Position numbers and translations under genes: made by a program. The notes under the pieces were generated by a model. It was not told the origin of the DNA. It was given only the letters and a program-made list of their open reading frames with translations, and did no database searches. Of a stretch of 64,000 nucleotides of DNA, positions 10,307-40,060 are shown one piece after another (position 1 is the first letter of the stretch; the number at the start of each line of letters is the position of its first letter). The DNA comes from Candidatus Omnitrophota bacterium (GTDB lineage Bacteria > Omnitrophota > Gorgyraeia > Gygaellales > Profunditerraquicolaceae): NCBI GenBank assembly GCA_041650835.1, contig JBAZKL010000001.1, positions 637,617 through 701,616 on the forward strand. The letters run 5' to 3'.

Positions 10307-10334
10307 TAAAAAAAACAAGGGACTGACAGTTTCA

Positions 10335-11339: not shown

Positions 11340-11342
11340 CTC

Positions 11343-12278
11343 TTAAACTCCCAGGTAAATATGCTTTGTGATCAACTCTTTGGGGGTAACATCAAAAGCG
11401 GGATAATACCCCTTCACCCCGGCAGGGGCAAAACGAACGCCCTGATATTCCAGCAATTCCTTATCGGGCCTTATTTCAATGGGTATATCTTTACCGCTTG
11501 CTGCCTTTGAAGGAGGAGGACAAACCACATAAAAAGGGACCTTAAAATGTTCTGCTAAAAGGGCGATCTGATAGGTCCCGATCTTGTTGGCGATATCCCC
11601 GTTTTGAGCCAAATGGTCCGCTCCCACGATCACCTTAGTGACCTTATTTTCATGCATCAGTTGAGCCACCATATTATCAGCGATAACCGTAACATCAAAG
11701 CCCGCGCGGTTGAGCTCCCAGGCAGTTAAACGCGCGCCCTGCAGATACGGACGGGTCTCAGTCGTGAAAAAACGGATATGCTTATCCTGTTTTAAACAAA
11801 GCGAACCGATGAGCGGCATCAGGCCGCTGATATTACAATGCGTCAGGATAACATCCCCGTCATTGATCAAAAGGCTTACCTCTTCTGCCTGCTGTACGCG
11901 CTTGTTCTTTAACATTTCAAGAAAACCAAGGATACTTTTTTCCAGGTCTTTGCCTGCCTGCGCCCACCCCAGTACCATACCGGTCAAGATCTTAAAAGAA
12001 AGCGTCGGACGGCTCGAGTTTATGGCAGCGGCCACTTTTTCCAAGCGGGGAAGAATATCCTTACCCTGCTTTTTCTTCTTGATCTCCAGCAAGAAAGTAT
12101 ACATGACCAGGAGGACCTGGCCGACAGCCCTGGTCTTCATTTCCTTGATCGCGCGGCACGCCCCCTGATAATCCCTTACCTTCAGGTACACTTTTTTCCG
12201 CGGCAATCGCGTCTCATCAAGGATAAAGATAGTATCCCCTTTTAACTCGATAGGCCAAAACAACGGCGAGAACTTCAT
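11343..12278 (-). CDS. mtnA: S-methyl-5-thioribose-1-phosphate isomerase (eIF-2B alpha/beta/delta family)
   Basis: Family motif VIVGADHLAQNGDIANKIGTYQIALLA. Confidence 0.75.
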   Translation of the reverse strand: MKFSPLFWPIELKGDTIFILDETRLPRKKVYLKVRDYQGACRAIKEMKTRAVGQVLLVMYTFLLEIKKKKQGKDILPRLEKVAAAINSSRPTLSFKILTGMVLGWAQAGKDLEKSILGFLEMLKNKRVQQAEEVSLLINDGDVILTHCNISGLMPLIGSLCLKQDKHIRFFTTETRPYLQGARLTAWELNRAGFDVTVIADNMVAQLMHENKVTKVIVGADHLAQNGDIANKIGTYQIALLAEHFKVPFYVVCPPPSKAASGKDIPIEIRPDKELLEYQGVRFAPAGVKGYYPAFDVTPKELITKHIYLGV

Positions 12279-12279
12279 T

Positions 12280-13050
12280 CTATTTGCCTTCCAATTTCTT
12301 CACGGCCGCCAAAGCGATCTCGATCAACTTCGATTCCGCCATATAATACATCGGATTCATAAACCCCATCTCACCGGTAATCACGTTATCGCTGACCGCC
12401 AGGATCGCTGCGGCCTTAACCTTATAGGTTTGCGCGATCGTAAGCAGTGTTGAAGAAACCATATCCACCGCGATCGCCCCTTCAAGGCGCTTTGACTCCA
12501 CCAACTCCCTGGTTTCGCGCAAAAGCGCGTCCGTCGTCCAGGCGCACCCCCGATGGACCGTCGCCCCCAGATCAGCGGCAACAGCAAAGAGGGTATCGGT
12601 AATCTTCTTGTCGGCAACCGTCTTAAAATCCTTATCGACGTAATACGGAGTTACTCCGTCTCCGCGAATGACCGTATCGACCACTATCAGGTCGCCGACT
12701 TTAATGTTTTCATCCAGCGCCCCGCAGGTGCCGATACGGATGATATTCTCTATCTCGGCATTGCACATAACCTCGGAGGTGATCGCGGTATCAGTGGAAA
12801 ACCTGCCGCCGTTGATAGCCGTAAGCTTGATACCCTGATACATCCCGGTATACATGGTATATTCCATAAAAGAAAAATTCTTCACCGGGTTCTCTATCTT
12901 CTTCATCAACACATCAAGCCTGTCTCTGGGCCCCGGCACGATCGCGTATTTGCCGACATCCTGAGGCCGCAGCTGCACCATCGCCGTAAGGTCCTTACCT
13001 GTCAAATGAACATCTTTTTGCATTTTCATATCGATCTCCTCACCAGTCAC
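12280..13050 (-). CDS. PNP/UDP family nucleoside phosphorylase, probable 5'-methylthioadenosine phosphorylase
   Basis: IRIGTCGALD motif of phosphorylase family 1. Operon context with mtnA and the aldolase. Confidence 0.65.
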   Translation of the reverse strand: MTGEEIDMKMQKDVHLTGKDLTAMVQLRPQDVGKYAIVPGPRDRLDVLMKKIENPVKNFSFMEYTMYTGMYQGIKLTAINGGRFSTDTAITSEVMCNAEIENIIRIGTCGALDENIKVGDLIVVDTVIRGDGVTPYYVDKDFKTVADKKITDTLFAVAADLGATVHRGCAWTTDALLRETRELVESKRLEGAIAVDMVSSTLLTIAQTYKVKAAAILAVSDNVITGEMGFMNPMYYMAESKLIEIALAAVKKLEGK

Positions 13051-13071
13051 CGGGCTCCCCCGGGGCTGACA

Positions 13072-13506
13072 TTATACTTGTATATTTAATTTCTTAACTA
13101 ACGGGAAAAACCGGGAATCCTCTTTACGGGCATGCGCGAGTGAAAGCTTGATTATTTCCTGCGCGGTGACGGCAATCTGCTTCATCCGCGCGGCATCCGG
13201 CTTGCCTTTCGAGGACGAAAAAAGCGACTTAAACAGATCGAGCTTCGCGTAGATCTGAATATGTTCGATTTGCAGCTCGCGCACGACCTGCTGCGCTTCA
13301 AGCAGCCCGCTCTTGAGCACTAAAGGAAATATCTTGCTTTCTTCATAGTGAAAATGCCCCGCGACATATTCCTGGAACAAGGTATTGAATTCACTTAGCC
13401 GCTTCGGCTCCTCGGCGATACGCGCCACAGACATAGCTTCCTTAAAAAAAGCTATACTTTCGAAGATCTCTCCGTGCTCCTGCGAAAGCTTTAACAATTT
13501 ATCCAT
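13072..13506 (-). CDS. hemerythrin-like metal-binding protein
   Basis: H...HxxxE...H...HxxxxD spacing (QEH, HFHYEE, IEH, LAHARKED). Confidence 0.5.
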   Translation of the reverse strand: MDKLLKLSQEHGEIFESIAFFKEAMSVARIAEEPKRLSEFNTLFQEYVAGHFHYEESKIFPLVLKSGLLEAQQVVRELQIEHIQIYAKLDLFKSLFSSSKGKPDAARMKQIAVTAQEIIKLSLAHARKEDSRFFPLVKKLNIQV

Positions 13507-13542
13507 TTTTATTCCCTCCCGTATGCCAATAAATACTTTTAC

Positions 13543-14448
13543 CTAAAACAAACCTTGAATATTCTCTCCCAGGATCCCGTCTTTCTCCTTTTGGGTCAAG
13601 GGCAAAGCGCCTACCGCCTTTAATGAAACGGCAGGGTCCTTTTTCGCCGGCCAATCGCTTCCCCAAAGGATACGCTTGGCGCCTACCAGGGAAAGCGCCG
13701 CCTGAAAATTAGCGGCGGATGTATCCCCGCTTGTATCGACATATATATTCTTTAAATATTCCGAAGGGTTCGCGCGCAGGTCTTTTACAAGATCGATCCC
13801 CCGCAGCATCTGATAGGTTGAGTCAAAGCGGGAGGGCAAGTGGCAGATCACTCCGCCAAAGTAGGCAAAAACAAATTTTACCCCCGGATACTCGCGAAAA
13901 ATATCCGCCATAAGGAGCTTGCCGATACAGATCGTTGTGTCAAAAACATATTCGATGACCGGCGTCAATAACGCGTCCTGCACGCGGTCATAGCCGATAG
14001 GGTTGACGATCTGGGGGTGGACAAAGATCGGGATATCCTTCTTTTGAGATTCGGCATAAACAGGGATAAAAAGCTTGTCGTCAAGGTATCTTCCGTTATA
14101 GCTGCTTGCTAATGAGAGCGCCTGGAATCCCAGTTCCTCTGTCGCGCGCTTGAATTCATCAAGCATATCGGAAGCGTTGTCGATAGGCAAAACCGCGGCT
14201 CCGATAAAACGCCCCGGGAAGCGTTTCATGACCTTCGCGACATTGTCGTTAAAAGCGTACGTAACCTCGCTGATACTGCCTAATTTCAGGTGGGCGTCGG
14301 TAGTCGGATAACTCAAAACAGCTTTATCGATCCCGCGGGCGTCCATCATCGCTACCTGCGCGTCAATATCGCCCCAGGCTTTCGAGAAAAAATGCGCGTT
14401 ATTAATGATCTCAGCGGGCAACCAATGGCTATGGCTGTCGATTATCAT
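13543..14448 (-). CDS. amidohydrolase-2 family metal-dependent hydrolase (TIM barrel)
   Basis: N-terminal MIIDSHSHW metal-binding motif, 301 aa. Confidence 0.7.
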   Translation of the reverse strand: MIIDSHSHWLPAEIINNAHFFSKAWGDIDAQVAMMDARGIDKAVLSYPTTDAHLKLGSISEVTYAFNDNVAKVMKRFPGRFIGAAVLPIDNASDMLDEFKRATEELGFQALSLASSYNGRYLDDKLFIPVYAESQKKDIPIFVHPQIVNPIGYDRVQDALLTPVIEYVFDTTICIGKLLMADIFREYPGVKFVFAYFGGVICHLPSRFDSTYQMLRGIDLVKDLRANPSEYLKNIYVDTSGDTSAANFQAALSLVGAKRILWGSDWPAKKDPAVSLKAVGALPLTQKEKDGILGENIQGLF

Positions 14449-14484
14449 AAACGTTTCCCCGGGCTTATAGGAGCAACAGTCGCC

Positions 14485-14901
14485 TTACTTTTGATCAGCG
14501 CTCTTTAAGATCCGCCCTATCATCTCATTTTCATAAAGGCCCTTGAACTCATCGAGGGTTTCTTTACCCAGCTCTTTTACGATCGCCTTCTCTATCGCCT
14601 CTAATTTCACATCCAGAAAAATGAACTCCGGGTTGACTTTCTTTCCCTTATATTTAAGTTCAAGCGAGGCTTTTTCTTTTTCCGCTATATAATCCCTGAA
14701 ATCATTGACAAATTGCTCAAGGGGCTTTTTCTCCCGGGGAAGATACGTCCCCTTAAGGATACCCTCTATTGACTCCAGGATGAACTCATCGATCTCAAGC
14801 TGGGTGAACTTGCGCTCATATTTGTCAAAGGATTCCTTGGTCGTTTTATACAACCAGAGTAAATACCGTTTCTTTAAATTGCGCATATCCTGCTTATCCA
14901 T
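14485..14901 (-). CDS. hypothetical Lys/Glu-rich protein
   Basis: ORF with no motif I recognise. Confidence 0.35.
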   Translation of the reverse strand: MDKQDMRNLKKRYLLWLYKTTKESFDKYERKFTQLEIDEFILESIEGILKGTYLPREKKPLEQFVNDFRDYIAEKEKASLELKYKGKKVNPEFIFLDVKLEAIEKAIVKELGKETLDEFKGLYENEMIGRILKSADQK

Positions 14902-14918
14902 ACGTTCGCCCCTCGCTT

Positions 14919-15527
14919 TTATTTCTTGACCAATTCGACATCATCGATGTACAAAACGCCTTTAGCCTCAGCCTTAGGCTCAAACTGGTAACTCTTTATC
15001 GGAAAATCCAACGTGTCGTTCTTGTCGGCGGCGTCAGGCTGCCAGTCTTTTCTCGGGTAGAAATCAGCGAGGGGGCAGACCATCTGCTGCCATCCGGTAA
15101 AATCATCGCTGACCATGGTGCGCCAGACTTCTTTCCCGTTATCTTTTATATCAAAGCATATATAGGCGCCTGAATTACTGCCGTACATATAAAAGGCTAT
15201 CGCGTTATATTTTGTCCAGTCGATATCCTGCAGGGGCACCAGCCACGCGGTGTTCTTCGAATCTAATTCAAAGCCGCGCGCCGCCCACATATAGCCGCCG
15301 GGGACCGCCTCATAGGCCAACTTGAGCGACTGCTTGCCGCCATGTTTGATATCTGTCGCGGCGCTGACCTCTAATTTCGAATCCCCTCCCGTCCCGAAAT
15401 CAACCGACCCGTCAGGGCCTCCTGAAAGAGCGCCTTCAAAATCATCGATCAATAAACCCTTGTCCTCTGCGAAACATACTGAAACCACACAAAGAGCAAA
15501 CACTAAACTTAACGTCAGCGCCTTCAT
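14919..15527 (-). CDS. secreted hypothetical protein, possible carbohydrate-binding beta-sandwich; paralogue of 43200-43850
   Basis: Signal peptide MKALTLSLVFALCVVSVCFA. Weak similarity to the 43200-43850 product. Confidence 0.45.
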   Translation of the reverse strand: MKALTLSLVFALCVVSVCFAEDKGLLIDDFEGALSGGPDGSVDFGTGGDSKLEVSAATDIKHGGKQSLKLAYEAVPGGYMWAARGFELDSKNTAWLVPLQDIDWTKYNAIAFYMYGSNSGAYICFDIKDNGKEVWRTMVSDDFTGWQQMVCPLADFYPRKDWQPDAADKNDTLDFPIKSYQFEPKAEAKGVLYIDDVELVKK

Positions 15528-15609
15528 GTTATTCCTCCTTATTTGTTTTACCGGTTAATCCTGTTTATCTGATAAACGTATCGCCTGATATTTTCACGGC
15601 CGCTGGAAA

Positions 15610-16386
15610 TTACTTGCCCGGATGCTGCTGCTTAAATGGTATCACCGGCTTAGTCCACGGCGTTTGCTGATTGATCACCGCGATCTCCAAAGGACAGACA
15701 TTCGCCGGCACGGTTAACGCAAAGCGCACCGCGCTCTCGATGGCTTCCGTTGTCATAAGCCGGGAGGTATCAGCGGTTATCTCCTGTAACTTTCCGGTCA
15801 GGTCGGTGTCCGTAACACCGGGGAGAAGAGAAGTGACCTTGATCCCATGATCACGCATCTCCCAAAACAACCCTTTTAAGAAAGCCTTTAATCCGACCTT
15901 AAGCGAACTATAGACCAGGAAATTCCGGGGCAGCGGGTCGCAGAGCGTTGAGCCTGAAACCATATTAATAATTGCCCCTTCCTTATTCTTAATCATATCA
16001 TTGATTACCAGCCGAATCAAGCGCACATACCCCAGATAATTAGTATGCACTAATCTTTCGAAATCGTCAAATGGCTGTTTCTCAAAAGGCGACTGGCTGG
16101 AAACCCCGGCATTATTGATCAGGATATTGATAGCGCCGAACTTTTCTTTCGCCTTATTCACCAGGTTCTCTAAATCTTCAAGTTTGGTAACATCGCAGAC
16201 AACCGGTAAAACCTCGACCTTATACTTCTTCCTGATCTCATCCGCGGTTTCTTTAAGCGGCCCTTCAGTACGCGCGGCAATGACAACATTAGCCCCTAAA
16301 TCAGCGCAGGTTGCAGCTAAAGCTTTACCGATACCGCGGCTGGCTCCCGTCACTATCGCGGTCTTCCCTCTAACCTTAGACATCAT
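15610..16386 (-). CDS. short-chain dehydrogenase/reductase (probable ketoreductase of the PKS-like cluster)
   Basis: TGASRGIGKA Rossmann motif, NNAG, and the YxxxK catalytic pair (YSSLK). Confidence 0.85.
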   Translation of the reverse strand: MMSKVRGKTAIVTGASRGIGKALAATCADLGANVVIAARTEGPLKETADEIRKKYKVEVLPVVCDVTKLEDLENLVNKAKEKFGAINILINNAGVSSQSPFEKQPFDDFERLVHTNYLGYVRLIRLVINDMIKNKEGAIINMVSGSTLCDPLPRNFLVYSSLKVGLKAFLKGLFWEMRDHGIKVTSLLPGVTDTDLTGKLQEITADTSRLMTTEAIESAVRFALTVPANVCPLEIAVINQQTPWTKPVIPFKQQHPGK

Positions 16387-17519
16387 ATGCCCCCCTTTAA
16401 GTTCCCTGGCAGGAATTTATTACTCAGTAACAACAACAGGAGTAATCCTCCCGCAAACACGCCATAATGCAGCAAAAAACTTTTCTGTAAAAGTATGCTG
16501 CCTATGGTAACGCCGATCCCGGCGGAAATAAAACGGATGCTGCTGTTTAAGCCGGCAGATTCGTTTATGAATTCTTTCGGTAAATCGGTCAATAATGTTG
16601 AAAGCCCGGCATGGTTCAACGTCCAACCGAATCCCCAAACAAGCATTACTATCGCTATCGCCGGAAACGGCAATTTCACGCAGAGCGTCAACACGCTCAA
16701 TATCATTAAGGCAATTCCCAGGTTAACCACCTTAAGCCTTCCCAGGGAATCCGAGAAACATCCTCCCGCTACTTCTCCTATGATGCCGCTTAAGCTGGTC
16801 AAGGTGATCAGGGTACTGATCAGGAATTGATCAAAGCCATAGGCTTTTGAAAAAAATACCGCGAGCCACTGCTGCACGCCATGATAAAAGAAACTAACAA
16901 GAAAGATATAACTCAACACTAAAACTACTGTTTTATTACGGAATACCTTATTATAATGCGCCGCGAAACTGCCCGTGGTTGCCTTAAAATCCTGAAGATA
17001 CCAATACATGTGTACCCAGACCAGAAAACCGAACACCGCGGGAAGAAAATAGATCATTCTCCACGGGAGTACCGCGCTTAAACTTAAGCCCAAGAGCGAG
17101 GCGACAAATGTGGCGCTAAAAAAGATCCCGGTCAACTTCCCCTTATTCTCCGGTTCGCCGTACTGGCTGATCAGGATCAACACCAGAGGGACAACCGATG
17201 CCCCGAATACACCCATCAGGACGCGCGACGCGTACAATATTCTTATATTCGCGGCAAAAGCCGCGAACAGGTTTGCCGCGCAAAAAAGGAAGAAACAAAC
17301 CAATTCAACTTTCTTCGCGTTGAACTTCCTTACCAGGGGGCCGTAAAAGAGCGCCGCGACGCCATAGGCAAGCATATACAACCACATGATCCTTCCCGCG
17401 ACAAACTCAGAGACGTTGAATTCCCTTGCGATCGAAGGGACCAACGCGGAACTCGCAGCCACGTTAAAAGACAACACCGCGCCTTCAAGGCAAAGCAAAG
17501 AAAATGTGGTTTTTCTCAC
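16383..17519 (-). CDS. MFS transporter
   Basis: 378 aa with about 12 TM helices. It overlaps the SDR start by 4 bp. Confidence 0.8.
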   Translation of the reverse strand: MRKTTFSLLCLEGAVLSFNVAASSALVPSIAREFNVSEFVAGRIMWLYMLAYGVAALFYGPLVRKFNAKKVELVCFFLFCAANLFAAFAANIRILYASRVLMGVFGASVVPLVLILISQYGEPENKGKLTGIFFSATFVASLLGLSLSAVLPWRMIYFLPAVFGFLVWVHMYWYLQDFKATTGSFAAHYNKVFRNKTVVLVLSYIFLVSFFYHGVQQWLAVFFSKAYGFDQFLISTLITLTSLSGIIGEVAGGCFSDSLGRLKVVNLGIALMILSVLTLCVKLPFPAIAIVMLVWGFGWTLNHAGLSTLLTDLPKEFINESAGLNSSIRFISAGIGVTIGSILLQKSFLLHYGVFAGGLLLLLLLSNKFLPGNLKGGI

Positions 17520-17522
17520 TAC

Positions 17523-17966
17523 TCAAACCTTCGCGGCAGCACGTTCTATCACGTCCTTAAAGATCAAAAGGTTTTCCTTCGAATGTTTATTGATAAACCC
17601 TTCCACCTGCTCATCGTTGAACTTCGCCTTATCATCCATCTGGAAATGCTGGATCCAGGACAATTCCACACCTTCCGGCTTTTGCGTGTAAAGCCAGACG
17701 ATCTTCATATATTTAAAAGGGAATTTCGGCTCTTCTCTTTCAGAATAGGTAAAGCATTTTTCTTTAAATAAAAGCCTCCAGGACTGCCAGGATTTCCCTT
17801 CGTCATCAGTCAGGCGGAAGGTGATCTTGTTGCCCTCTTTCTTTACTATTTCGGCTTTCCGGTATTCGCCGCCGAACAGTTCGGTCCAGCGGGGAATATC
17901 GTTTGAGATATCGAACACCTTATCATACGGAGCATTGATGATTATAGAATTACATGTATGTCCCAT
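17523..17966 (-). CDS. SRPBCC (polyketide cyclase/dehydrase, Bet v1-like) family protein
   Basis: 147 aa with a fold-family resemblance to TcmN-type aromatase/cyclase. Supported by PKS context. Confidence 0.55.
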   Translation of the reverse strand: MGHTCNSIIINAPYDKVFDISNDIPRWTELFGGEYRKAEIVKKEGNKITFRLTDDEGKSWQSWRLLFKEKCFTYSEREEPKFPFKYMKIVWLYTQKPEGVELSWIQHFQMDDKAKFNDEQVEGFINKHSKENLLIFKDVIERAAAKV

Positions 17967-18003
17967 AGGTTACCTCCTTGCGGCCTGAGACTTATGACAT
18001 TTA

Positions 18004-18318
18004 CTATTTCCCGAATAAACTCAACAGGATCGCCAGGTCCTCAGACGCGCTTAACGAATGCGGCGCGTTCTTGGGCATAAAGATAAATACACCCGGAGCC
18101 ATTTTGATCTTTTTACCGTTTAATATAAAAGTACCCTTCCCCTTTAAAACCGTCACTGCAGCTTCCCGGCTGGAGGTATGCTCGGAAATATCGCTCCCCT
18201 TTGCCAGGCACATGAGCGTATAGTTGGAAGTATTCGTCTTTACCAACACCTTACTAAAGACACCGTCTTTGGGGAATTCCATCATCGCTTCCAGATCTAG
18301 TATCGCTGATTTAATCAT
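18004..18318 (-). CDS. cupin domain protein (possible TcmJ-like polyketide cyclase)
   Basis: 104 aa small cupin barrel (GSDISEHTSSREAAVTVLKGKGTFILNGKKIKMAPGVFIFMPKNAPHSL). Confidence 0.55.
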   Translation of the reverse strand: MIKSAILDLEAMMEFPKDGVFSKVLVKTNTSNYTLMCLAKGSDISEHTSSREAAVTVLKGKGTFILNGKKIKMAPGVFIFMPKNAPHSLSASEDLAILLSLFGK

Positions 18319-18423
18319 ATTCTCCTTTTATTAAAAGCAATAGACACAAAGTCACCAGACACACGACACAAGTTTCAAGAGATATAGCACAAAAGCCTAA
18401 CCTGTGTCTGGTATCTTGAGACT

Positions 18424-19239
18424 TTACAATACCGCAACCACCCGCGCCCAGGCGGCACCCGTGCATTTGATCTTGATCGGAAAACAAATAATCTTAAACC
18501 CGGAATCCGGCAGTTTCCCTAATCCGCAGAGCCGCTCTATATGAATGAATTCCCTTTTCCGGCCGTGAAAATGCGCCGGATACAAAGGATGCTTTTTCTT
18601 GTCCTCCAGGAATTCCTTAAGCATGAATTTATACGGCCGGTCGATCCCCATAGTATCGACACCAAAGATCTTGATGCCCCTATCAAGCAGATAATCGATC
18701 GCCGTTACATCCACCCCCGGGTATTCCGAAAAATACTTCGGGCCGCCGTAGAATTTATCCGCGCCGGTATAAAAAAGGACAATATCAAAAGGTTTAAGGG
18801 TATAATTGATCTTTTTAAGGCTATCTTCCACGTCCGTGGCAGTAATACAATCCGCGGGTTTCTTACGCGTCAGGTCCAGGCGCACACCGTCGCAATAACA
18901 CCATTCTAAAGGGATTTCTTCGGCAGTTTTCGCGGGGCGCCCCTCAGAGCGGGAGCCGTAGTGGAAAGAATAATCCAGATGCGTGCCGATATGGACAGGT
19001 GAATGGACAATTTCTAAAGATAAGAATTCTCCGTCAGGCAGATCATCCGGGCTAACCATACGATTACCCAGAAAATACTTGAGCCTGCCTAAAAGGGTCT
19101 TGCCCATGATCACGCGGTTAAACTTCTCAACCCCAGCCTTATGCCCCACCCGCTCAATATCCACCGGGTGGACTTCAAAGGCTTTTTCATCGATAGGAAG
19201 GCTTAAGTCTATGATCTGCATAACGTTTTGGGCTTGCAA
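18424..19239 (-). CDS. cyclase family protein (kynurenine formamidase-like fold)
   Basis: HxGTHxDxxxH motif (HSPVHIGTHLDYSFHYG). Confidence 0.75.
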   Translation of the reverse strand: MQAQNVMQIIDLSLPIDEKAFEVHPVDIERVGHKAGVEKFNRVIMGKTLLGRLKYFLGNRMVSPDDLPDGEFLSLEIVHSPVHIGTHLDYSFHYGSRSEGRPAKTAEEIPLEWCYCDGVRLDLTRKKPADCITATDVEDSLKKINYTLKPFDIVLFYTGADKFYGGPKYFSEYPGVDVTAIDYLLDRGIKIFGVDTMGIDRPYKFMLKEFLEDKKKHPLYPAHFHGRKREFIHIERLCGLGKLPDSGFKIICFPIKIKCTGAAWARVVAVL

Positions 19240-19294
19240 AAAAAAATACGCGAGAAAAACGCCGACTCATCCGATAAGTCAGCGCGATAAAACG

Positions 19295-19534
19295 TTAAAC
19301 TTTTGCCAGCTTTGACTGAATGACCTTAACGATCTCATCGATCGTAGAAAGCTTAGAGATCTCTTTGGTGCTTATTTTCGTATTAAAGGTTTTTTCTAAA
19401 GCAATAACTGCTTCGACCATTTCAGTAGAATCAACCCCGATACTTTCCTGCAAAGTCACGCTGTCTTTAAGTTCTTCCGGTTTTACGCGTAACAACTTGA
19501 CTAAAACATCCTTGATCTGAGCTTTTATATCCAT
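19295..19534 (-). CDS. acyl carrier protein
   Basis: 79 aa with the 4'-phosphopantetheine attachment region GVDSTEMVEAV. Confidence 0.75.
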   Translation of the reverse strand: MDIKAQIKDVLVKLLRVKPEELKDSVTLQESIGVDSTEMVEAVIALEKTFNTKISTKEISKLSTIDEIVKVIQSKLAKV

Positions 19535-19928
19535 ACTTATCCCCCTTTAGAGATTACTTATAACAAATGCAGGCCGTATAACACAACTAATTTATAATTT
19601 TAGGTTATGGCTCAGGTTAAGATATTTGTTTGGTTGTTGGGTTTGGTAGTTAGGTTATATAACGTTAATGATAAAGTTTAAAGGCCCTGCCTCACCGGCA
19701 GGTAAATAACAAAGGAAGGTTTAAGACTCAAGGTTTAATCTTAAAATTTATCCTTTATTCTTTGGATTTCCTTTGTTCTTTGAGCTTTAACCTTTGATCT
19801 TAACTTGCTCTACTTGTTTTTAACCAAACCGCTTTACCCAACTACTAAACTAAAATCATTACCCTTGCCTAACTACCCTCTATGGACTATTTGCCTGCCC
19901 CGAGCTTGTCGAGCGGTGTCTTGCAACT

Positions 19929-21389
19929 TTAAATATGAACCTCTCCCTTAGTAGCTCCAGCCTCCCACTTCCCTACTCCTGCCATAACATCCTGGAAACA
20001 GAGCTTTGCCAACGGATCAAAATTGCTCTCCATGATGCGGTTGATGCGGCCGGGTTTTGAGAAAAATTCCCGCATACACCATGAACCCAAACGGCCGAGG
20101 TCATCAATGGTCAAATGATCCGTGGGAATAACAGGATGCAAGAAATCCCACTGGCTGAAATCAACTTTCTTAGGGTCAATCCAGTTCTTCTTTAAAGAGA
20201 TCCGCCACATAGGTGAATTCGGGGCAGGCGTGACGTAACCAACCCAGAGGATATCCGGGTCGACCTGATCTGTGAACTCAAAGCGCTGCTTAATAATAGC
20301 TTCCGTATCATAATCAAAACCCATCATGATATCCGCGACAATGGCAATATCGTTCTTGCGCAGGATCTCAATGGTCTTTTTGATCTGATCAAGGGTGATC
20401 CCCTTGGCGATCCTTTTAAGCTCTGACTGCGTGGTTACTTCAATACCGAAAACTCCCATAAACAGGCCTGTTTCCTTCATCAGCGGCAAGATTGACTCGC
20501 AATTGACCCAATCAATAGCCCGGCCAAGAGAAACCCATTTAATGTCAATTTTCTTTTGTTTCTTTAAATTACAGAATCTTTTCACGCGTTCAGGATCAAC
20601 ATTGAAATTATCATCCTGAATGACCACGACCTTGACCCCGTACTTATTCTGCAGCAAGGCCATTTCTTCAATGACCCGCTCAGGGCTTTTGGCGCGCCAC
20701 TTCAGGAAGTCTGACGGAGAACGCGGGTCAAACTGGTCCCATTCGTAGCAAAAGGTGCACGCTGAAGGGCAGCCCCGTGAAGTAACCATATCCACGAACG
20801 GCTTCCAATACGTATGGCCAACATACTTATCCATCGGGAACAGATCGTATGCCGGCAAAGGCAGTTTATCGAGGTCCTCTAAAAGCGGTTTATGCGGCCC
20901 CATCACGATCTCGCCATCGATCCGCGAAGTAACGCCGCCCACGTCTTTTAAGTCTTTCTTTTTATCGATAGCTTCGATTAAATCCCCGAATGATTCTTCT
21001 TCACCCATGACCACAAAATCAACTGCCGGATTTTCTTCCAGCGTCGGCACCGGCATGGCTGAATACCACAATCCGCCCAAAATTATTTTTGTCCGGGGCA
21101 ATGCCTTTTTGATCCCTGCCGCTGCCTCTTTAAAATGACGCAACACTCCATAGCCTCCGTAGCCATGCAGCTGTTCACCCATCACCACAATATCAGGCTT
21201 CTTGGCCTTGACCTGCTCGATCAGCTGGTCCATAGGGAGCTGGTCTGCTTTCCCGTCGATAACCGAGACATCCTCATATCCTCGTTCCCGCGCGTACGCT
21301 GCCCAGTGCGCGTACAATTGATTCGGCGAACGATGTATCCCATGGGTTGCCCAGGCGCCTACTTTAGGCATGACAAACAGAATTTTCAT
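19929..21389 (-). CDS. B12-binding domain radical SAM protein (class B, probable C-methyltransferase or rearrangement enzyme)
   Basis: N-terminal cobalamin-binding-like domain and the radical SAM CxxxCxxC motif (SRGCPSACTFC). Confidence 0.85.
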   Translation of the reverse strand: MKILFVMPKVGAWATHGIHRSPNQLYAHWAAYARERGYEDVSVIDGKADQLPMDQLIEQVKAKKPDIVVMGEQLHGYGGYGVLRHFKEAAAGIKKALPRTKIILGGLWYSAMPVPTLEENPAVDFVVMGEEESFGDLIEAIDKKKDLKDVGGVTSRIDGEIVMGPHKPLLEDLDKLPLPAYDLFPMDKYVGHTYWKPFVDMVTSRGCPSACTFCYEWDQFDPRSPSDFLKWRAKSPERVIEEMALLQNKYGVKVVVIQDDNFNVDPERVKRFCNLKKQKKIDIKWVSLGRAIDWVNCESILPLMKETGLFMGVFGIEVTTQSELKRIAKGITLDQIKKTIEILRKNDIAIVADIMMGFDYDTEAIIKQRFEFTDQVDPDILWVGYVTPAPNSPMWRISLKKNWIDPKKVDFSQWDFLHPVIPTDHLTIDDLGRLGSWCMREFFSKPGRINRIMESNFDPLAKLCFQDVMAGVGKWEAGATKGEVHI

Positions 21390-21510
21390 AAAACCCCCCT
21401 TTGAAAATGATAATTAAAAACTTGTTCCGGCCACAAGTCACATGACACAAGTAAAAAGAATCAAAACCTGCGGCTGGTGTCTTGTGTCGGGTGTCTATTG
21501 GAGCTTTACA

Positions 21511-22740
21511 CTATGATTTCTCTACTACCAGCGCCGAATTGATACCGCCCCTGCCGCGGGAGATGATCAAGGCTTTCTTGATCTTATGCGGGAGCGCCTT
21601 ACCGGTGACAAAATTCAAGCCATTGTAAAAAGGCTCATCCAAATTGATGGTCGGAGGAACAAGGTCATGCTCCATGCTCAAGAGCGTGATGATCAGGTCA
21701 ACCGCCCCCGACGCGCCCAAAAGATTCCCAAACATCGATTTCGGACAACTCAGCGGGATATCTTTCGCCTTTTTGCCGAAAACTTCCTTTATTGCCGCTA
21801 TTTCGGTATTATCCCACTCATCGACCGCCAGGCCGTCTAAACTGATATAATCTATTTCTTCAGGCAATGCCCCGGCGTCAGTAAGCGCCAGAGTGATCGC
21901 CCTGGCTAATTGTTTCCCGTTGGAATCCGGATGGATCCTGTCTTTTCCGTCGCAGGTCGTGCCAAAACCGGAAATATACCCCGCGATCGCGGCGCGACGC
22001 GCTTGGGCGTGGTCAAAATCTTCCATGACCACGATACCCGCTCCTTCACCGATCACAAAGCCGGAGCGTTTTTTATCAAACGGCCGGTAGGCGCTTTCCG
22101 GTTTCTCATTACGAGTAGAAAGCGAGCCATAGGTATTACAACACAATAAAGCGTAAGGAGTGACCGGGGCCTCCATCCCTCCCGCCAGGATAAGATCAAG
22201 TTTTTTCTTCGCTAAGGTAGTGCGCGCGTAGCCGAGCGCCATTAAAGAACTCGCCCGGTCCGATACGACTGTTTTACTAAAGCCCTTGATGCCGTAATAG
22301 ATCGACACCTGCCCTTGAGGCGCGGCAGGGAACCACGCCGAAGCCATATAAGGAGAAACTCCTTCGCGCCCTTCGATATAAAGGTCGCGCAATTCCGTTT
22401 CCGCGTATAACCATCCGCCTAAAGCATTTCCCAGGAATATCCCCACCAGGTTCGGGTCCTCATTCTTAATATCAATACCGGCATCCTGCAAAGCCATTTC
22501 AGAGGCGATCAAGGCCATATGAGAAAAAACATCTATTTTCTTTAAAAGCCGTTCGGAGACATGCGAATATTTTTCCAGGTCATCGATCTGGCCGGCAACG
22601 CGCGACGGATATAACGAAGCGTCAAAACGCGTGATCGCCTTGACAAAAGGCCTGCCTGATTTTATATTCGCCCAGAACTGGCGTTTTCCGATGCCGGAAG
22701 GAGCGACAATGCCTGATCCGGTAATAGCTATTTTTTTCAT
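21511..22740 (-). CDS. ketosynthase beta / chain-length-factor-like, catalytically inactive
   Basis: KAS fold, but the active-site Cys is absent (TVVSDRASS where KS-alpha has STGCTAG) and both catalytic His are replaced (SLDGLAV, KSMFGNLLG). Its start overlaps the stop of the upstream KS-alpha (ATGA), suggesting translational coupling. Confidence 0.8.
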   Translation of the reverse strand: MKKIAITGSGIVAPSGIGKRQFWANIKSGRPFVKAITRFDASLYPSRVAGQIDDLEKYSHVSERLLKKIDVFSHMALIASEMALQDAGIDIKNEDPNLVGIFLGNALGGWLYAETELRDLYIEGREGVSPYMASAWFPAAPQGQVSIYYGIKGFSKTVVSDRASSLMALGYARTTLAKKKLDLILAGGMEAPVTPYALLCCNTYGSLSTRNEKPESAYRPFDKKRSGFVIGEGAGIVVMEDFDHAQARRAAIAGYISGFGTTCDGKDRIHPDSNGKQLARAITLALTDAGALPEEIDYISLDGLAVDEWDNTEIAAIKEVFGKKAKDIPLSCPKSMFGNLLGASGAVDLIITLLSMEHDLVPPTINLDEPFYNGLNFVTGKALPHKIKKALIISRGRGGINSALVVEKS

Positions 22741-23996
22741 TCCAGCCGCCTCATGACTAAAGAAGAATGTATCCCCGAAAAACCGCTGCTTGTTTTAATG
22801 ATGGTTTTGACTTTTTTCCGGCGCGCGACATTGGGGATATAATCGAGGTCGCACAGAGGGTCTTTTTCCTCCTGGTTTATCGTCGGAGGAAGGACATCAT
22901 TCTGAAAGATCATCGAGCAGATGGTAAGTTCGACCGCGTTTGCCGCTGCCAGGGGGTGTCCGAACATCGACTTAAGAGAACTGATAGGCAGTTTATAGGC
23001 GTAATCGCCGAAGATCATTTTATAGGCGCTTGTCTCGAATATATCATTCATGCGCGTCGATGAACCATGCGCGTTAATATAATCTATCTGCTCAGGCTCA
23101 ACCCCGGCATCAAGGAGCGCTAATTTAATGCACTTAGCCATCGCCGTCCCGTCGCCCGGCAGGTCAGTCATATGAAAAGCGTTACAACTGGTGCCGAAGC
23201 CAAGGACCTCACAATAGATGGTCGCGTTGCGCTTCAAGGCGTGCTCAAGTTCCTCCAGGATCAAGATCCCCGCTCCTTCCGACAAAACAAAGCCGTTACG
23301 CTTATTATCAAAGGGGCGGCTGGCAGCCTCAGGGTCATCATTAAGCGTCGATAAAACATTCACCACATCAAAGGCGCCGAAGGTGATCGGGGTTAAAGGC
23401 GCTTCCGCGGCGCCTGCGACCATAATATCATGCTGGCCGTCCTGTATCGTCTCTAAAGCAAACCCTAACGAATCGGTCCCGGCGGTACAGCCGGTAGACA
23501 AGGTATCGCAAATGCCGCGCAAACCGTATTTCGTGGAAATCTCTATCGAAGGGGTATTGAACATCGCCGCGTCATAAAGGTCGGGCCTCGCCAAAGCGGG
23601 ATTGATCGGCGACTTACCGTTATCCGTCACCAGCGCGAATTCTTCTTCCATATACTTGGTGCCGCAGATCGCGTTTGCCAGGCAAACCCCCACCCGTTCA
23701 GGGTCCTCTTTTGAAAAATCAAGCTTACTATCCTTGATCGCCATGTTTGCCGCGACCACTCCGAATTGCACATAGCGGTCCATACGCACGGCCTCATCAT
23801 GGGTCAACCCTAAGGCAAAGGGGTCAAAATCCTTTACCTGCGCGGCGATCTTGGTATTAAAAACCGAAACATCAAAATCTTCAACTTTCTTAATACCTGA
23901 TTTTCCGGAAACAAACGCCTTCCAGGCATTTTCTTTTCCGATACCGTTGGGCGAGATCACACCGATCCCTGTTATCACGACTCTTCGTTTCTTCAT
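22737..23996 (-). CDS. beta-ketoacyl synthase (KS-alpha type, catalytically active)
   Basis: Catalytic triad is present: Cys in LSTGCTAGTDSLG, His in INAHGSSTRMND and His in KSMFGHPLAA. The track ORF begins with TTG at 24026, but the ATG at 23996 (MKKRRVVITGIG) is the likely start. Confidence 0.85.
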   Translation of the reverse strand: MKKRRVVITGIGVISPNGIGKENAWKAFVSGKSGIKKVEDFDVSVFNTKIAAQVKDFDPFALGLTHDEAVRMDRYVQFGVVAANMAIKDSKLDFSKEDPERVGVCLANAICGTKYMEEEFALVTDNGKSPINPALARPDLYDAAMFNTPSIEISTKYGLRGICDTLSTGCTAGTDSLGFALETIQDGQHDIMVAGAAEAPLTPITFGAFDVVNVLSTLNDDPEAASRPFDNKRNGFVLSEGAGILILEELEHALKRNATIYCEVLGFGTSCNAFHMTDLPGDGTAMAKCIKLALLDAGVEPEQIDYINAHGSSTRMNDIFETSAYKMIFGDYAYKLPISSLKSMFGHPLAAANAVELTICSMIFQNDVLPPTINQEEKDPLCDLDYIPNVARRKKVKTIIKTSSGFSGIHSSLVMRRLE

Positions 23997-24042
23997 ATTT
24001 TTATCGCAATACAATAGTAGTTTCAAGACACAAGTTTAACCG

Positions 24043-24666
24043 CTACTCTGGTGACCTGGCGTCTTTGTGCTCTGGTGACTTTGTTCCCTCGACTCTCCTG
24101 ACCTCAAAAACGATACTGCCTCCGTCAGGACAGGTGACCGTGTTGATCGAGTCAGGATCCTTCATGAATGAGAACTTGGCGCCGAAATTAAGCGCGAAAA
24201 GCGCGGGGAACGCCGTGTGAAACGCGGCCCCGCAAAATCCCGGGATACATTTTAATCCGACCGTTTCCCAGGTATCCCCTACTTTATAACCAAACGTACA
24301 TTTCCCCGGAGCTTTCACTACTTCAATAACCATCTTCTTCGGATCCGGCCCTTTATGCCGCACATCTCTCGGGACCGATTCGACTTTGCCTTCTTTATCC
24401 AGGACCTCCGCTTTGAATTCCAGCTTTCCCCCGTCAGGGCAGGTCACCATCAGCGAACGTTGATTTTCCCTGAACGGGAACTTCGCGCCAAAGCTTAAAG
24501 CGTAGATCACCGGAAAAAGAGCGTGCGCTAATCCCAGGCAAAAATGCTTCGGAGGATGAGTAAAATCCTCTAAAATAAGTTCATCGCCGGCCTTATACCC
24601 GTGATAGCATTCTCCATAAACGTTGGAAACAGTCAATTTCAGCTTAGGGAACGGTGATTGTATCAT
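24043..24666 (-). CDS. hypothetical protein with two tandem ~95 aa Cys-rich repeats (CPDGG motif); possibly TIGR04076-like
   Basis: Internal duplication: CYHGYKAGDEL...FCLGLAHALFPVIYALSFGAKFPF...VTCPDGGKLEF and CTFGYKVGDTW...FCGAAFHTAFPALFALNFGAKFSF...VTCPDGGSIVF. Confidence 0.5.
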   Translation of the reverse strand: MIQSPFPKLKLTVSNVYGECYHGYKAGDELILEDFTHPPKHFCLGLAHALFPVIYALSFGAKFPFRENQRSLMVTCPDGGKLEFKAEVLDKEGKVESVPRDVRHKGPDPKKMVIEVVKAPGKCTFGYKVGDTWETVGLKCIPGFCGAAFHTAFPALFALNFGAKFSFMKDPDSINTVTCPDGGSIVFEVRRVEGTKSPEHKDARSPE

Positions 24667-24671
24667 TGGGT

Positions 24672-25682
24672 TCAGGGGGCTTTGATAAATTTTTTGGTTT
24701 CCGCTATCAAATGATGTTTGCTGAAGAATTTTCCGGTGCGCTCAACCAAATGCACCATCTCAACCAGCTTTTCGTTAAGCGGAGCTTGCAGCTTTTTATC
24801 CCTGGCAACACGCACGTACTCACCGTTGATATAATCGATCTCCGAAGGCCGTTTCCTTTTTATGCTCTGCAGAATAGACCCATACAACGGCTCCTTGCTC
24901 AAATTGATCATGATCTCCGACATGATCCGTGAAGATTCAACCAGCGGCATCGAAGCCAGGCTCACCAGGCGCTCCACCGGAAAATCAGGCAAACCCGCCA
25001 TCTTGACGCCGGCCCGGGTAAAAACCTCCAGGCCTTCACGCCAGATAGTGACCGCCACCCGGCTTATTTCCATATCGGCAAACGCCTCCTGAATACTCAT
25101 CCCTAATACGGCCGGAAGGCAATTGTTCGCGTTAAGAAAGATCTTTAAATATTTCATGGCAGTCACGTCGTCGCTTAAAACCATGGGGAACATTTTTTTC
25201 ATCAGGAGAAAAACCTCTTTAAGCGTATTGTCCTGCCTGCCGTTAAGCCTGCCGATAACCCAGGGTCCTTCAAAATTCTGCACGATATGAGCGGGGGTAA
25301 CGTAGGTCGCCCCGAACATGACGATACTTGAAATAATATGCTCCCGCGGTATATGCTCCGCGATAATATGGTCGGCCTGCACGCCGTTCTGGATGGTCAG
25401 GATGGTTGAGTTCTTCAGGAATTTCAAATTCTGTTTAATGGTGCTCTCGCAATCCTGCGTTTTTACCGTCAGGATCACTAAATCGAAGCTTTCCTGTAAA
25501 CTCCCGGAAACATCAACTGGGACATTTATATTGCCCCTGGTGCCGTTGACCGTTAACCCGTTCTTTCGTATTACTTCAACATATTCGGGACGGACAAATA
25601 AAGAAACCGCCTCACCTCTGAATTTTAAATATGCCGCGACCAATCCGCCGATCGCCCCGCCCCCGATGATTGCTATTTTCAT
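24672..25682 (-). CDS. ketopantoate reductase (ApbA/PanE) family NAD(P)-dependent oxidoreductase
   Basis: N-terminal MKIAIIGGGAIGG Rossmann motif, 336 aa, two-domain KPR architecture. Confidence 0.65.
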   Translation of the reverse strand: MKIAIIGGGAIGGLVAAYLKFRGEAVSLFVRPEYVEVIRKNGLTVNGTRGNINVPVDVSGSLQESFDLVILTVKTQDCESTIKQNLKFLKNSTILTIQNGVQADHIIAEHIPREHIISSIVMFGATYVTPAHIVQNFEGPWVIGRLNGRQDNTLKEVFLLMKKMFPMVLSDDVTAMKYLKIFLNANNCLPAVLGMSIQEAFADMEISRVAVTIWREGLEVFTRAGVKMAGLPDFPVERLVSLASMPLVESSRIMSEIMINLSKEPLYGSILQSIKRKRPSEIDYINGEYVRVARDKKLQAPLNEKLVEMVHLVERTGKFFSKHHLIAETKKFIKAP

Positions 25683-25688
25683 ATACCC

Positions 25689-25967
25689 TTACCCGTTTGT
25701 CCTGTTGCCTTTCTTAGGAAAGCCGTATTTTTTATAATCAATACCTGATTGCTCCAACAAACGCACCATCATGCTGTAAAAAGGCACCGGGACATCGGAA
25801 AAGAAAGCGCTGATGACGTCTAGCTCCTGCACCGCGGCGCCATGACGCGCGGCGGCATTCTCCTCCGCTTTTTTTCTTACCGCGCTCTCAGCGATGTGCC
25901 GGTGAAAAACAGGCAATTTCGCGATAATACCGGTAAACTTCTCCTGGATATCAGCTTCCCATTCCAT
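25689..25967 (-). CDS. hypothetical small protein
   Basis: ORF with no motif I recognise. Confidence 0.3.
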   Translation of the reverse strand: MEWEADIQEKFTGIIAKLPVFHRHIAESAVRKKAEENAAARHGAAVQELDVISAFFSDVPVPFYSMMVRLLEQSGIDYKKYGFPKKGNRTNG

Positions 25968-26119
25968 AGCTTATAAAACCTCCCGAGCCTTACGCTTATA
26001 GTAAAATTTTACTATATTATTTCCCAATATTTTATAATTAAATTATTTTTTGTCAAGCCTAAAAACTAACATCTCATCAAACAAGGGATTACCGCGGGAT
26101 AACAAAGACACGAAAGGAC

Positions 26120-26404
26120 TTAATACCCCCTGAGGATCGATTCAATCTTCGTCTTAATTGACGCGGCTTCAATCCTGCCGGCCAATTCGACATTGCCGTT
26201 AATAAGGACTACCGGCACCTGCGCGGGGCTTAAACTATACCGCTGCATGGCTTTTAAATTCTCCGTATGTTTAAACTCGAAGAATATCTTTGTTTTATAT
26301 TGTATTTCCAGGCCTTTAACGACTTCCCGTATCTTTTTTTCAATGAATTCGCATTTAGGGCAGGGTCTGCATATGACTTCAATCGTTTTAATGGCCATGA
26401 TCAT
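26120..26404 (-). CDS. small thioredoxin-fold protein with a CPKC redox motif
   Basis: 94 aa with a CxxC (CPKC) motif. Confidence 0.55.
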   Translation of the reverse strand: MIMAIKTIEVICRPCPKCEFIEKKIREVVKGLEIQYKTKIFFEFKHTENLKAMQRYSLSPAQVPVVLINGNVELAGRIEAASIKTKIESILRGY

Positions 26405-26476
26405 TACTCCTTTTTACGCGCGCCGATACGTTTGATTTGAAAAGGATCTTTATAATAAAACTGGCGATCACACCCG

Positions 26477-26899
26477 TTATGTATTAGCTGTCTTTAGATT
26501 ACGCAGGTACATAAGGTCCCTGCTTGAAACCATACCGATCACCTTATCGCCCTTACGCACCGGAAGGTGGCGGAAAGGGACTTTTTTCATCATATCATAG
26601 ATCTTATCGATGCCGTCATCCAGGTCAACGGAGATCACGTCGCTGGTCATAATATCCCTGGCTTTTGTCTCATCCAGGGACTTATCCTCGGCAACAACCC
26701 TCCAAACCACGTCCCGCTCCGATATGATACCGGCGAGATTTCCGTCTTTTTCCACGATTATCGCGCCGATCTTATTTTGTTTTAAGATCTTGGCGATCTC
26801 CCGCACCGAAGCATTTTCCGAAGTTTTAATGATGGAATCATTGATCTTTAAAGCGAAAGGCGTATTGGCTTTTTGTTGGACCTTAACAAGCTTTTTCAT
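26477..26899 (-). CDS. CBS domain pair protein
   Basis: Two CBS motifs (IIVEKDGNLAGIISERDVV and VIGMVSSRDLM). Confidence 0.7.
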   Translation of the reverse strand: MKKLVKVQQKANTPFALKINDSIIKTSENASVREIAKILKQNKIGAIIVEKDGNLAGIISERDVVWRVVAEDKSLDETKARDIMTSDVISVDLDDGIDKIYDMMKKVPFRHLPVRKGDKVIGMVSSRDLMYLRNLKTANT

Positions 26900-32666: not shown

Positions 32667-33119
32667 TTAACCCTCTTTTTCATGCAGCAGGATATCGCGT
32701 ATCTGCCCGAGTATCCGCAGATGGTCCCGCCGGTCAGCTTCCGATATCTTTCCGAATATTTTAATAGACATTTGCCGGCGCTGCTGCGAAGTCTTCTTTA
32801 CCAATTCATTGCCTTTAGGGCTTAAGATCACTTTTATAATGCGGCGGTCACGGGAATCATACTTACGCAGGATATAGCCGCCTTTAACTAAACGGTTAAC
32901 GATCCCCGTCATTGCCGCGGTAGAAACATCCATGAGATGAGCCAGGTCGGTCATCTTGGATTCACCCTCCTTATGGATAATATCGAGAACGAGGAATTGC
33001 GGCAGGGTGATCTTTCCTTTATATAATTCATTAGCCTGCCGTTTAGCGAATTCCCGCATAATAACCGGCATAAGAGCGTTTAACTCATCGGCAAATTCCA
33101 ATAAAGAGACCTCGATCAT
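32667..33119 (-). CDS. MarR family transcriptional regulator
   Basis: 150 aa winged HTH (LPQFLVLDIIHKEGESKMTDLAHLMDVSTAAMTGIVNRLVKGGYI). Confidence 0.8.
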   Translation of the reverse strand: MIEVSLLEFADELNALMPVIMREFAKRQANELYKGKITLPQFLVLDIIHKEGESKMTDLAHLMDVSTAAMTGIVNRLVKGGYILRKYDSRDRRIIKVILSPKGNELVKKTSQQRRQMSIKIFGKISEADRRDHLRILGQIRDILLHEKEG

Positions 33120-33613: not shown

Positions 33614-33687
33614 AACGCCCCCTTTCGCAGAAAGCCTGACCGCCGTCAGGCAGTCGCACACGCCCGCCGGGCTTACGCGTGCCTTAT

Positions 33688-36013: not shown

Positions 36014-36016
36014 TAG

Positions 36017-39255: not shown

Positions 39256-39345
39256 CGACAGGGACCTGTCAAAAGGTGGCTGTCACCCTTTGACTTGATT
39301 AAAGACAAAACCATGAAAAAAACACAACGCTTGAATCTTGCAATT

Positions 39346-40032: not shown

Positions 40033-40060
40033 CTGTCACCAAAAGTGACTGTCACCGTTG
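40028..40060. repeat. two direct REP copies (aaaagtgactgtcacc x2)
   Basis: Tandem 16-mers immediately after the RAYT stop codon. Confidence 0.6.

Follow-up and report, generated by a model that had tools for sequence, protein, structure and literature searches.

Among the long simple-sequence repeats of many bacteria, those with a 7-nt unit are the most abundant, and slippage has been put forward as their origin (Mrazek et al., 2007, as cited in PMC4679880 and PMC4692102). Described examples include the short tandemly repeated repetitive (STRR) sequences of Calothrix and Nostoc, the TAACTGA repeats that Beggiatoaceae carry immediately before start codons (PMC4679880), the GGGAATC repeats of Xanthomonas, some of them in inverted pairs that can form stem-loops (PMC4692102), and, in Geobacter metallireducens, the families GGACCGG and MTYCTGA (PMC2700814). 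Effects on expression have been reported for the Nostoc heptamers (bioRxiv 10.1101/2022.06.06.494920). Repetitive extragenic palindromic (REP) sequences and bacterial interspersed mosaic elements (BIMEs) form hairpins that block 3'-to-5' decay or work as partial attenuators (PMC3733652). Here we describe tandem arrays of the heptamer NTGTGWC in a 64,000-nt stretch of a Candidatus Omnitrophota genome (hereinafter referred to as the window; contig JBAZKL010000001.1, positions 637,617 to 701,616), where they occupy spacers of a type II polyketide-synthase-like gene cluster. No literature linking Omnitrophota with REP sequences, REP-associated tyrosine transposases (RAYT), or tandem repeats was found.

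A first-pass annotation of this DNA had recognized a conserved element of about 85 bp between genes of the cluster. We consider it fairly probable that this element represents a local grouping of a tandem-NTGTGWC repeat family that is dispersed in some Omnitrophota genomes, and not a set of operators for a regulator of the gene cluster. The arrays lay mostly in spacers, were found on many contigs per genome, were absent from the spacers of orthologous clusters, and changed in length in steps of 7 nt. They belong to the tandem-heptanucleotide class and behave like REP elements: the 7-nt unit is repeated head to tail in runs beyond chance, the number of units varies, and the many sites are mainly intergenic.

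As in the described heptanucleotide families, runs comprised a few to about ten copies, were often situated only a few nucleotides from start codons, stood at many sites per genome beside functionally unrelated genes, varied in length between related genomes, and were patchy among lineages. Like the Xanthomonas repeats, they included inverted pairs able to form stem-loops. They differed in the unit itself, NTGTGWC, which is not reported in the papers cited above, and in the phylum. In addition, the units were degenerate at positions 1 and 6 instead of identical, a third of the arrays were hairpin pairs of one fixed polarity, and different heptamers (GGACCAT-type and NTGTGWC-type) were concatenated in the same GWC phase. 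The family is thereby documented in Omnitrophota, an uncultured phylum known mostly from metagenome-assembled genomes (MAGs).

Heptamer arrays in the window

The repeat was non-random in the window. The motif GACACAAG gave 6 matches against 0.69 expected, only at 9625, 9632, 18365, 21444, 21481(-), and 24027, and these were confined to the four minus-strand spacers that the first-pass annotation had named. The 20-mer CTTGTGTCATGTGACTTGTG, in minus-strand reading, matched at 21432-21451 with 0 mismatches, at 9613-9632 with 2, and at 18353-18372 with 3, whereas 100 shuffles gave 0 matches. Arrays of at least three units numbered 3 in the window against 0.05 in shuffles, and GWC runs in 7-nt phase numbered 4 against 0.33 expected. 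Tandem Repeats Finder (TRF) reported period 7 at 9625-9639 and 9649-9672.

The contexts of all matches, when printed, showed a head-to-tail unit of 7 nt, NTGTGWC, with GWC recurring every 7 nt. Among the 184 units tabulated, TTGTGTC was the commonest (67), followed by ATGTGTC (25), TTGTGAC (18), and ATGTGAC (14), and positions 2-5 and 7 were nearly invariant. In the copies at 18.3 kb (e18) and 21.4 kb (e21), a heptamer run faced an inverted run, giving the arrangement (GWCACAN)n-loop-(NTGTGWC)n. The repeat features of the window were as follows.

9611-9645, minus strand: five-unit array at 9.6 kb, TTTTGAC TTGTGTC TTGTGTC ATGCGAC CTGTGAC; it abuts the GGAGG ribosome-binding site of the aldehyde dehydrogenase (ALDH) gene.
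9649-9672, minus strand: second heptamer array of other sequence, GACCATG GACTGTG GACCATG; TRF period 7 and a GWC-phase run.
9689-9745, minus strand: CCGGAT-type short repeats, CCCGGATCC, TTCCGG, CCCGGATTTCC, and TTCCGGAT.
18343-18371, minus strand: 3' arm of e18, TTGTGTC GTGTGTC TGGTGAC (T) TTGTGTC; it ends about 24 nt short of the cupin start codon.
18402-18425, minus strand: 5' arm of e18, GATACCA GACACAG plus an outer stem TAAAGTC, the latter including the cyclase stop codon TAA.
21430-21450, minus strand: 3' arm of e21, TTGTGTC ATGTGAC TTGTGGC; about 40 nt upstream of the start codon of the B12-binding radical SAM (rSAM) gene, at the 20-mer match with 0 mismatches.
21451-21474, minus strand: loop between the heptamer arms of e21.
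21475-21495, minus strand: 5' arm of e21, GACACCC GACACAA GACACCA; it begins about 15 nt past the stop codon of the ketosynthase (KS)-beta gene.
24020-24035, minus strand: solitary unit ACTTGTGTC, then TTGAAAC, a degenerate unit; both lie in the 46-nt spacer that separates the TIGR04076-family and KS-alpha genes.

The two full copies (about 18340-18428 and 21425-21513) could be aligned over about 85 nt, including TGTAAAG at the stop codon of the upstream gene. The repeat is real and its copies at 18.3 and 21.4 kb do share one orientation, as the first-pass annotation stated, but the unit of repetition is the 7-nt heptamer, and identity between copies within the window was only about 60%. Both copies also contained inverted repeats, as noted previously, which were long and imperfect: 18348-18374/18399-18425 in e18 (27 nt, 78% complementary) and 21431-21451/21481-21501 in e21 (21 nt, 76% complementary). 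The 5' arm of e21 read as an in-phase array of three units on the plus strand.

The inverted repeats had been described as differing between the copies while staying complementary. This does not amount to covariation in homologous columns. Since both arms are heptamer runs in opposite orientation, several pairing registers are possible, and the complementarity is a consequence of the inverted runs. In the aligned register, e18 and e21 differed by one one-sided A-to-G change leading to a G-U pair. A covariation-supported RNA stem in the 85-bp element was rejected in view of these alternative registers, and covariation cannot be judged from as few as two copies.

The remaining two sites proved different from their earlier descriptions. 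The site at 9612-9645, regarded as a half copy, did contain the motif, but it is a five-unit array without an inverted partner, standing beside the second array and the CCGGAT-type repeats. At 24015-24090, where a partial or inverted copy had been placed, one canonical and one degenerate unit were present in the 46-nt spacer and no inverted copy was found; the rest of that interval is coding sequence of the TIGR04076-family gene.

Over all loci, array size ranged from 2 to 11 units, with 4 the commonest and 9-11 in L017, L022, and L047. The order of modules, a second array of the GACCATG-like type together with NTGTGWC arrays, was common to L029, L041, L045, L048, L053, and L061. CCGGAT-type repeats were found upstream of heptamer arrays in several genomes and were absent from the L053 orthologue. 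Further, a higher-order tandem repeat was observed at L017 2174-2403, consisting of four blocks of about 58 nt (TTTTTTCTGTTTTTAAGGTTTTCG plus 4-9 TGTGTCN units) with 23 heptamers in total.

Distribution across genomes and orthologous clusters

A scan of 185,579 species genomes (596 Gb) with the pattern CTTGTGTCRTGYGWCYKGTG matched 60 stretches; the pattern corresponds to 35 bits, so that by our own calculation chance alone would give about 35 matches in a collection of this size. MAGs labelled Omnitrophota or 'uncultured Planctomycetales' accounted for about 41 of the 60 stretches, which would be a large enrichment if such MAGs are, as is likely, a small fraction of the collection. Individual MAGs carried several sites: CAZOGI01 had 9 on 8 contigs, CAZPNW01 had 9 on 7, JAKLFA01 had 4 on 3, and JAFGGP01 had 3 on 3. 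CAZPNW01 represents a sister species of the window's organism, as its locus L053 aligned to window positions 15308-8539 at 86-98% nucleotide identity. The L022 array abutted a scaffold gap and the arrays of L040 and L057 were located at contig ends, and arrays so placed probably fragment assemblies.

Based on crude open reading frame (ORF) calls, about 37 of 46 arrays were intergenic. Among the 33 arrays whose flanking genes were classified with the same crude calls, a small sample, 29 stood between co-directional and 4 between divergent genes, with 0 between convergent genes. Many arrays were situated 5-40 nt from a start codon or 2-19 nt from a stop codon. No orientation bias was detected relative to flanking genes (14 co-oriented and 15 opposed) or to local GC skew. 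The genes directly downstream encoded ThiG, dihydroorotate dehydrogenase (PyrD-like), PurD, anthranilate synthase, a glutamine amidotransferase, ATP synthase c, H+-pyrophosphatase, RecG, S20, type II secretion system (T2SS) ATPase, TatD, CCA/poly(A) polymerase, and a major facilitator superfamily (MFS) transporter, with no functional theme among them.

The shared-regulator function proposed in the first-pass annotation, namely operators through which a MarR or PadR protein would co-ordinate the cupin, rSAM, KS-alpha, and ALDH genes, was assessed with nine related clusters among L002-L013 (129 kb). All four window sites do fall within a single 15-kb stretch, with a common orientation and a gene start downstream of each, and both a MarR and a PadR gene are nearby. 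Nevertheless, 0 NTGTGWC arrays were present in the 129 kb of the nine orthologous clusters, including L013, which has an adjacent PadR gene, and L008, which has an adjacent MarR gene; the motif was thus neither conserved at orthologous positions nor confined to a regulon, being dispersed over many unrelated loci and genomes, housekeeping genes included. MarR and PadR operators are typically dyads, which variable heptamer runs do not resemble. Judging from these comparisons, the NTGTGWC motif is not part of the polyketide-like cluster, and an operator function is very improbable. The motif is no mark of a polyketide-like regulon and is unfit for inferring co-regulation or for choosing a regulator.

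The spacer between KS-beta and rSAM measured 121 nt in the window, against 29 nt in L002 and 53 nt in L006, and the two genes overlapped in L008. In its 3' part (AAGTTTTTAATTAT...GGGGGG), the window's spacer resembled the short L002 spacer, and e21 therefore looks inserted, with the stop codon on one side and a short ancestral spacer on the other. A miniature inverted-repeat transposable element (MITE) has fixed terminal inverted repeats, a target-site duplication, and a related autonomous transposon. No target-site duplication was evident when e21 was compared with the 29-nt ancestral-type spacer of L002, and no matching autonomous element was seen in a search that was not systematic. Other repeats were found in close relatives. 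In the same cluster spacers, L011/L012, whose rSAM is 90% identical, carried another palindrome, GTGACAGTCAC, 15 times in 11.7 kb, and in L010 (92% identical) the rSAM spacer held a heptamer hairpin of other sequence. The short repeats that have colonized the operon spacers thus differ from lineage to lineage.

Possible function and origin of the arrays

The predicted sense RNA of e18 formed one long imperfect hairpin (-29.3 kcal/mol, z = -3.9), and the minimum-energy folds of e18 and e21 used different registers. The sense RNA of the 24.0-kb spacer folded no better than shuffles. The element had no match in Rfam 15 at the gathering threshold; a permissive threshold yielded only a chance-level hit to mir-m107-1 (22.8 bits against 83), and assignment to a known RNA family was rejected. 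Terminator-like and promoter-like sites over 9400-26500 were at background level, as in shuffles, which makes co-transcription of the operon plausible.

If co-transcribed, the 18.3- and 21.4-kb copies would be intercistronic RNA stem-loops, a role already suggested in the first-pass annotation and plausible at least for the 18.3-kb copy, as far as a predicted fold can tell. Such stem-loops are the most likely local effect of the arrays. By analogy with REP/BIME hairpins, they might bar 3'-to-5' decay or function as partial attenuators, and thereby modulate the stability of the neighbouring cistrons (cupin and rSAM) or uncouple their expression. The 9.6-kb array would lie in the 5' leader at the ribosome-binding site and may modulate initiation of ALDH translation. 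The arrays themselves would grow and shrink by slipped-strand mispairing, and may spread or persist like REP-like elements.

Internal promoters were also considered. TTGTGT and TTGTGA resemble TTGACA, and in L015 and L056 a unit stood 17 nt upstream of a TATAAT-like hexamer, so that TTGTGW units could serve as -35 boxes. A properly spaced -10 box was found in only 2 of 64 arrays, on which ground a sigma-70 promoter was rejected, and promoter-like sites in the operon were no commoner than in shuffles. This function is the least probable of those considered. A sigma-54 promoter was likewise rejected, as no GG-N10-GC match was present when the sequence was read by eye.

The window could be compared with L053 at the ALDH-proximal array, the only such orthologous pair among the fetched loci, which supplied both the unit-number variation and the conservation described here. 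The two sequences differed by 1 substitution in 76 nt and by exactly one extra 7-nt GACCTGT unit in L053. Length changes of 7 nt could serve as strain markers.

Several observations weigh against a slippage-driven, dispersed repeat family. Conservation of the ALDH-proximal array exceeded that of the neighbouring coding sequence (90.95% identity; p = 0.006), with the rest of the ALDH spacer unalignable between the window and L053, and this points to selection or homogenization acting on the array, and not to neutral junk. An inverted partner of at least two complementary units occurred upstream of 15 of the 46 arrays and downstream of 0. All 15 hairpin pairs had the same polarity, '-' then '+', that is (GWCACAN)n-loop-(NTGTGWC)n, and never the reverse. 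This polarity is genuine, because the arrangement reads the same on both strands, and it is not predicted by pure slippage with random inversion. In addition, the 3-4 copies of the window lay within 15 kb and none in its other 49 kb, a local concentration, and the density of further arrays in the fetched loci (roughly one per 20-50 kb, counting arrays not used for selection) was obtained from loci chosen for having the motif. The hairpin of e21 sense RNA beat shuffles only modestly (-23.4 kcal/mol, z = -1.6), the fold of the 9.6-kb array sense RNA was not significant (z = -0.6), and every effect of the arrays on RNA is proposed by analogy.

The conservation and the polarity could be accommodated if the arrays were phased sites bound sequence-specifically by a nucleic-acid-binding protein, such as a global DNA regulator or a protein that recognizes GWC at 7-nt intervals on RNA or single-stranded DNA, and formed a genome-wide regulatory network. 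The ALDH-proximal array remained nearly perfect where coding identity was about 91%, many arrays were placed at the short distances from start and stop codons given above, and the unit sequence was kept across many MAGs. Hypotheses of this kind have precedents, including that for the TAACTGA repeats of Beggiatoaceae (PMC4679880; bioRxiv 10.1101/2022.06.06.494920). On the other hand, the arrays show no orientation bias to genes (14 versus 15) or to GC skew, which counts against a strand-specific RNA site. No function is common to the downstream genes, both copy number and spacing vary greatly, arrays are missing altogether from related genomes that have the same genes, and no candidate binding protein was identified. 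Such a network is unlikely, although it is the least unlikely of the alternatives.

HutP-type and TRAP-type RNA sites consist of triplets at fixed short spacing that are read by ring-shaped proteins, with UAG-N4 in the case of HutP. The recurrence of GWC with a 4-nt spacer and a 7-nt period is similar to the HutP sites, as a resemblance only. In contrast to HutP and TRAP sites, the NTGTGWC arrays had no strand bias to transcription and no identified protein gene, and were distributed over unrelated genes.

A more specific proposal is that the GWC-phased arrays are a selected, protein-read system of certain Omnitrophota lineages, with a domesticated RAYT-like Y1 transposase or another GWC-every-7-nt reader as the candidate protein. 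It would explain why the polarity is strict, why arrays are placed against start and stop codons, and why the ALDH-proximal array is almost perfectly conserved between species, but we regard it as somewhat less likely again. If a protein does read the arrays, they would offer a tractable case for the long-standing question of the function of heptanucleotide repeats in bacteria.

A further alternative is that the hairpin copies are REPINs (REP doublets) mobilized by a transposase encoded in the window. A RAYT-like Y1 transposase gene was identified at 39412-40032 on the plus strand (NF047646, 70.7 bits, just below the cut-off of 80). Its orthologues were single-copy and syntenic across Omnitrophota, being located downstream of a ChlI/ComM-like gene in 4 of the 5 distinct loci read; no relatives of the protein were found in a search of Joint Genome Institute (JGI) metagenomes. 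Palindromes of the sequence GTGACTGTCAC were present in the flanks of the gene (39276-39386 and 40017-40056) at 39357, 39375, 40029, and 40045. The pentamers GTGAC and GTCAC of the RAYT palindrome GTGAC-T-GTCAC are common to heptamers with W = A, which is a lead only. Moreover, e18 and e21 are extragenic inverted doublets predicted to form hairpins, a feature of REP sequences, 15 of the 46 arrays have an inverted partner, and the RAYT-type palindrome in L011/L012 fills the same spacers of the polyketide-like cluster.

Similarity to REP, BIME, and REPIN sequences (PMC3116915; PMC3733652) extends to dispersal in operon spacers, absence from the orthologous spacers of relatives, mosaic neighbourhoods with other short repeats, and a RAYT-like gene in the genome. 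The sequence flanking the RAYT gene, however, is not NTGTGWC: the gene and its orthologues (L074-L079, five distinct loci) were all flanked by GGTGACTGTCACC-type palindromes, and 0 NTGTGWC arrays were found in 34.5 kb at these loci. By sequence, the heptamer family fails the defining REP/REPIN feature, the same repeat flanking its cognate RAYT gene. An unpaired GTAG or CGTC tag, another defining REP/RAYT feature (PMC3733652), was absent from the arm ends by inspection. The arms are variable-number tandem 7-nt units and not a fixed palindrome of 20-40 nt, and the low identity of the window copies is unlike REPIN populations, which are centred on a master sequence. REPs mainly occupy positions downstream of genes, in unidirectional and convergent spacers. 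In the small sample of 33 arrays whose context was classified with crude ORF calls, 0 stood between convergent genes, and a preference for such spacers was not apparent. Mobilization as REPINs is rather improbable, slightly more so than the protein-read system. The 'small REP/MITE family' of the first-pass annotation came closest among the options it listed, since the repeats are dispersed, mostly intergenic, and hairpin-forming, but the tandem heptamer structure and the missing REP/RAYT features set them apart.

Gene cluster and other elements of the window

The genes around the arrays were all encoded on the minus strand. Genes of the cluster and the two regulator genes were as follows.

8109-9599, minus strand: ALDH.
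Between the cupin and ALDH genes, minus strand: polyketide cyclase, MFS transporter, short-chain dehydrogenase/reductase (SDR), and others.
18004-18318, minus strand: cupin.
18424-19239, minus strand: cyclase (stop codon TAA 18424-18426).
19295-19534, minus strand: acyl carrier protein (ACP).
19929-21389, minus strand: B12-binding radical SAM enzyme (rSAM).
21511-22740, minus strand: KS-beta (stop codon 21511-21513).
About 22737-23996, minus strand: KS-alpha.
24043-24666, minus strand: TIGR04076-family protein.
24672-25682, minus strand: ApbA-type reductase.
32667-33119: MarR protein.
33688-34203: PadR protein.

The closest relatives of the rSAM protein had 73-92% identity and came from more than 100 clusters, the named ones being Candidatus Omnitrophota. 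The gene order of the cluster (window 8109-25967; L002-L013) was conserved in many Omnitrophota MAGs and in one MAG labelled Thermodesulfobacteriota. The cluster also contained an amidohydrolase gene, followed by methylthioribose-type salvage genes and ALDH.

Several other elements were observed in the window. A c-di-GMP-I riboswitch was present at 56140-56221 on the minus strand (64.2 bits against a gathering score of 35). An AT-rich repeat of 93 nt, a near-palindrome with 39-nt arms, occurred at 19703-19795 and 57329-57421 with 76% identity; one copy was inside the 394-nt rSAM-ACP spacer, and it is probably another dispersed spacer element. A 79-nt direct repeat with internal hairpins was found at 36060-36138 and 36240-36318 (81% identical). 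A palindrome of the TTTCGCAGAAAGC type recurred at 33603-33635, 36002-36034, and 39020-39052, and in L006 and L013 a similar palindrome, CGCTTTCTGCG, immediately preceded the ribosome-binding site of rSAM.

In addition, a GC-rich element of about 140-200 nt was located at 10101-10300 on the minus strand, between the class II aldolase and ALDH genes. Identity was 97.5% with its counterpart in the sister species (L053 6607-6767) and 77% with a copy in another Omnitrophota MAG (L048), where the locus is not orthologous, and more copies were found on the JGI metagenome contigs L081, L085, L089, and L090, including two on one 44-kb contig. The RNAalifold consensus was multi-stem, with 49 pairs and compensatory changes in 15 of them, and the element had no Rfam match. 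Heptamer arrays followed within 10-400 nt in 6 of 7 copies. The element is a candidate structured non-coding RNA or small dispersed element. The copy at L089 2864-3100 contained two insertions of one and the same small hairpin, CTGCCGTCAGGCAG, in two different stems, which look like a nested mini-element.

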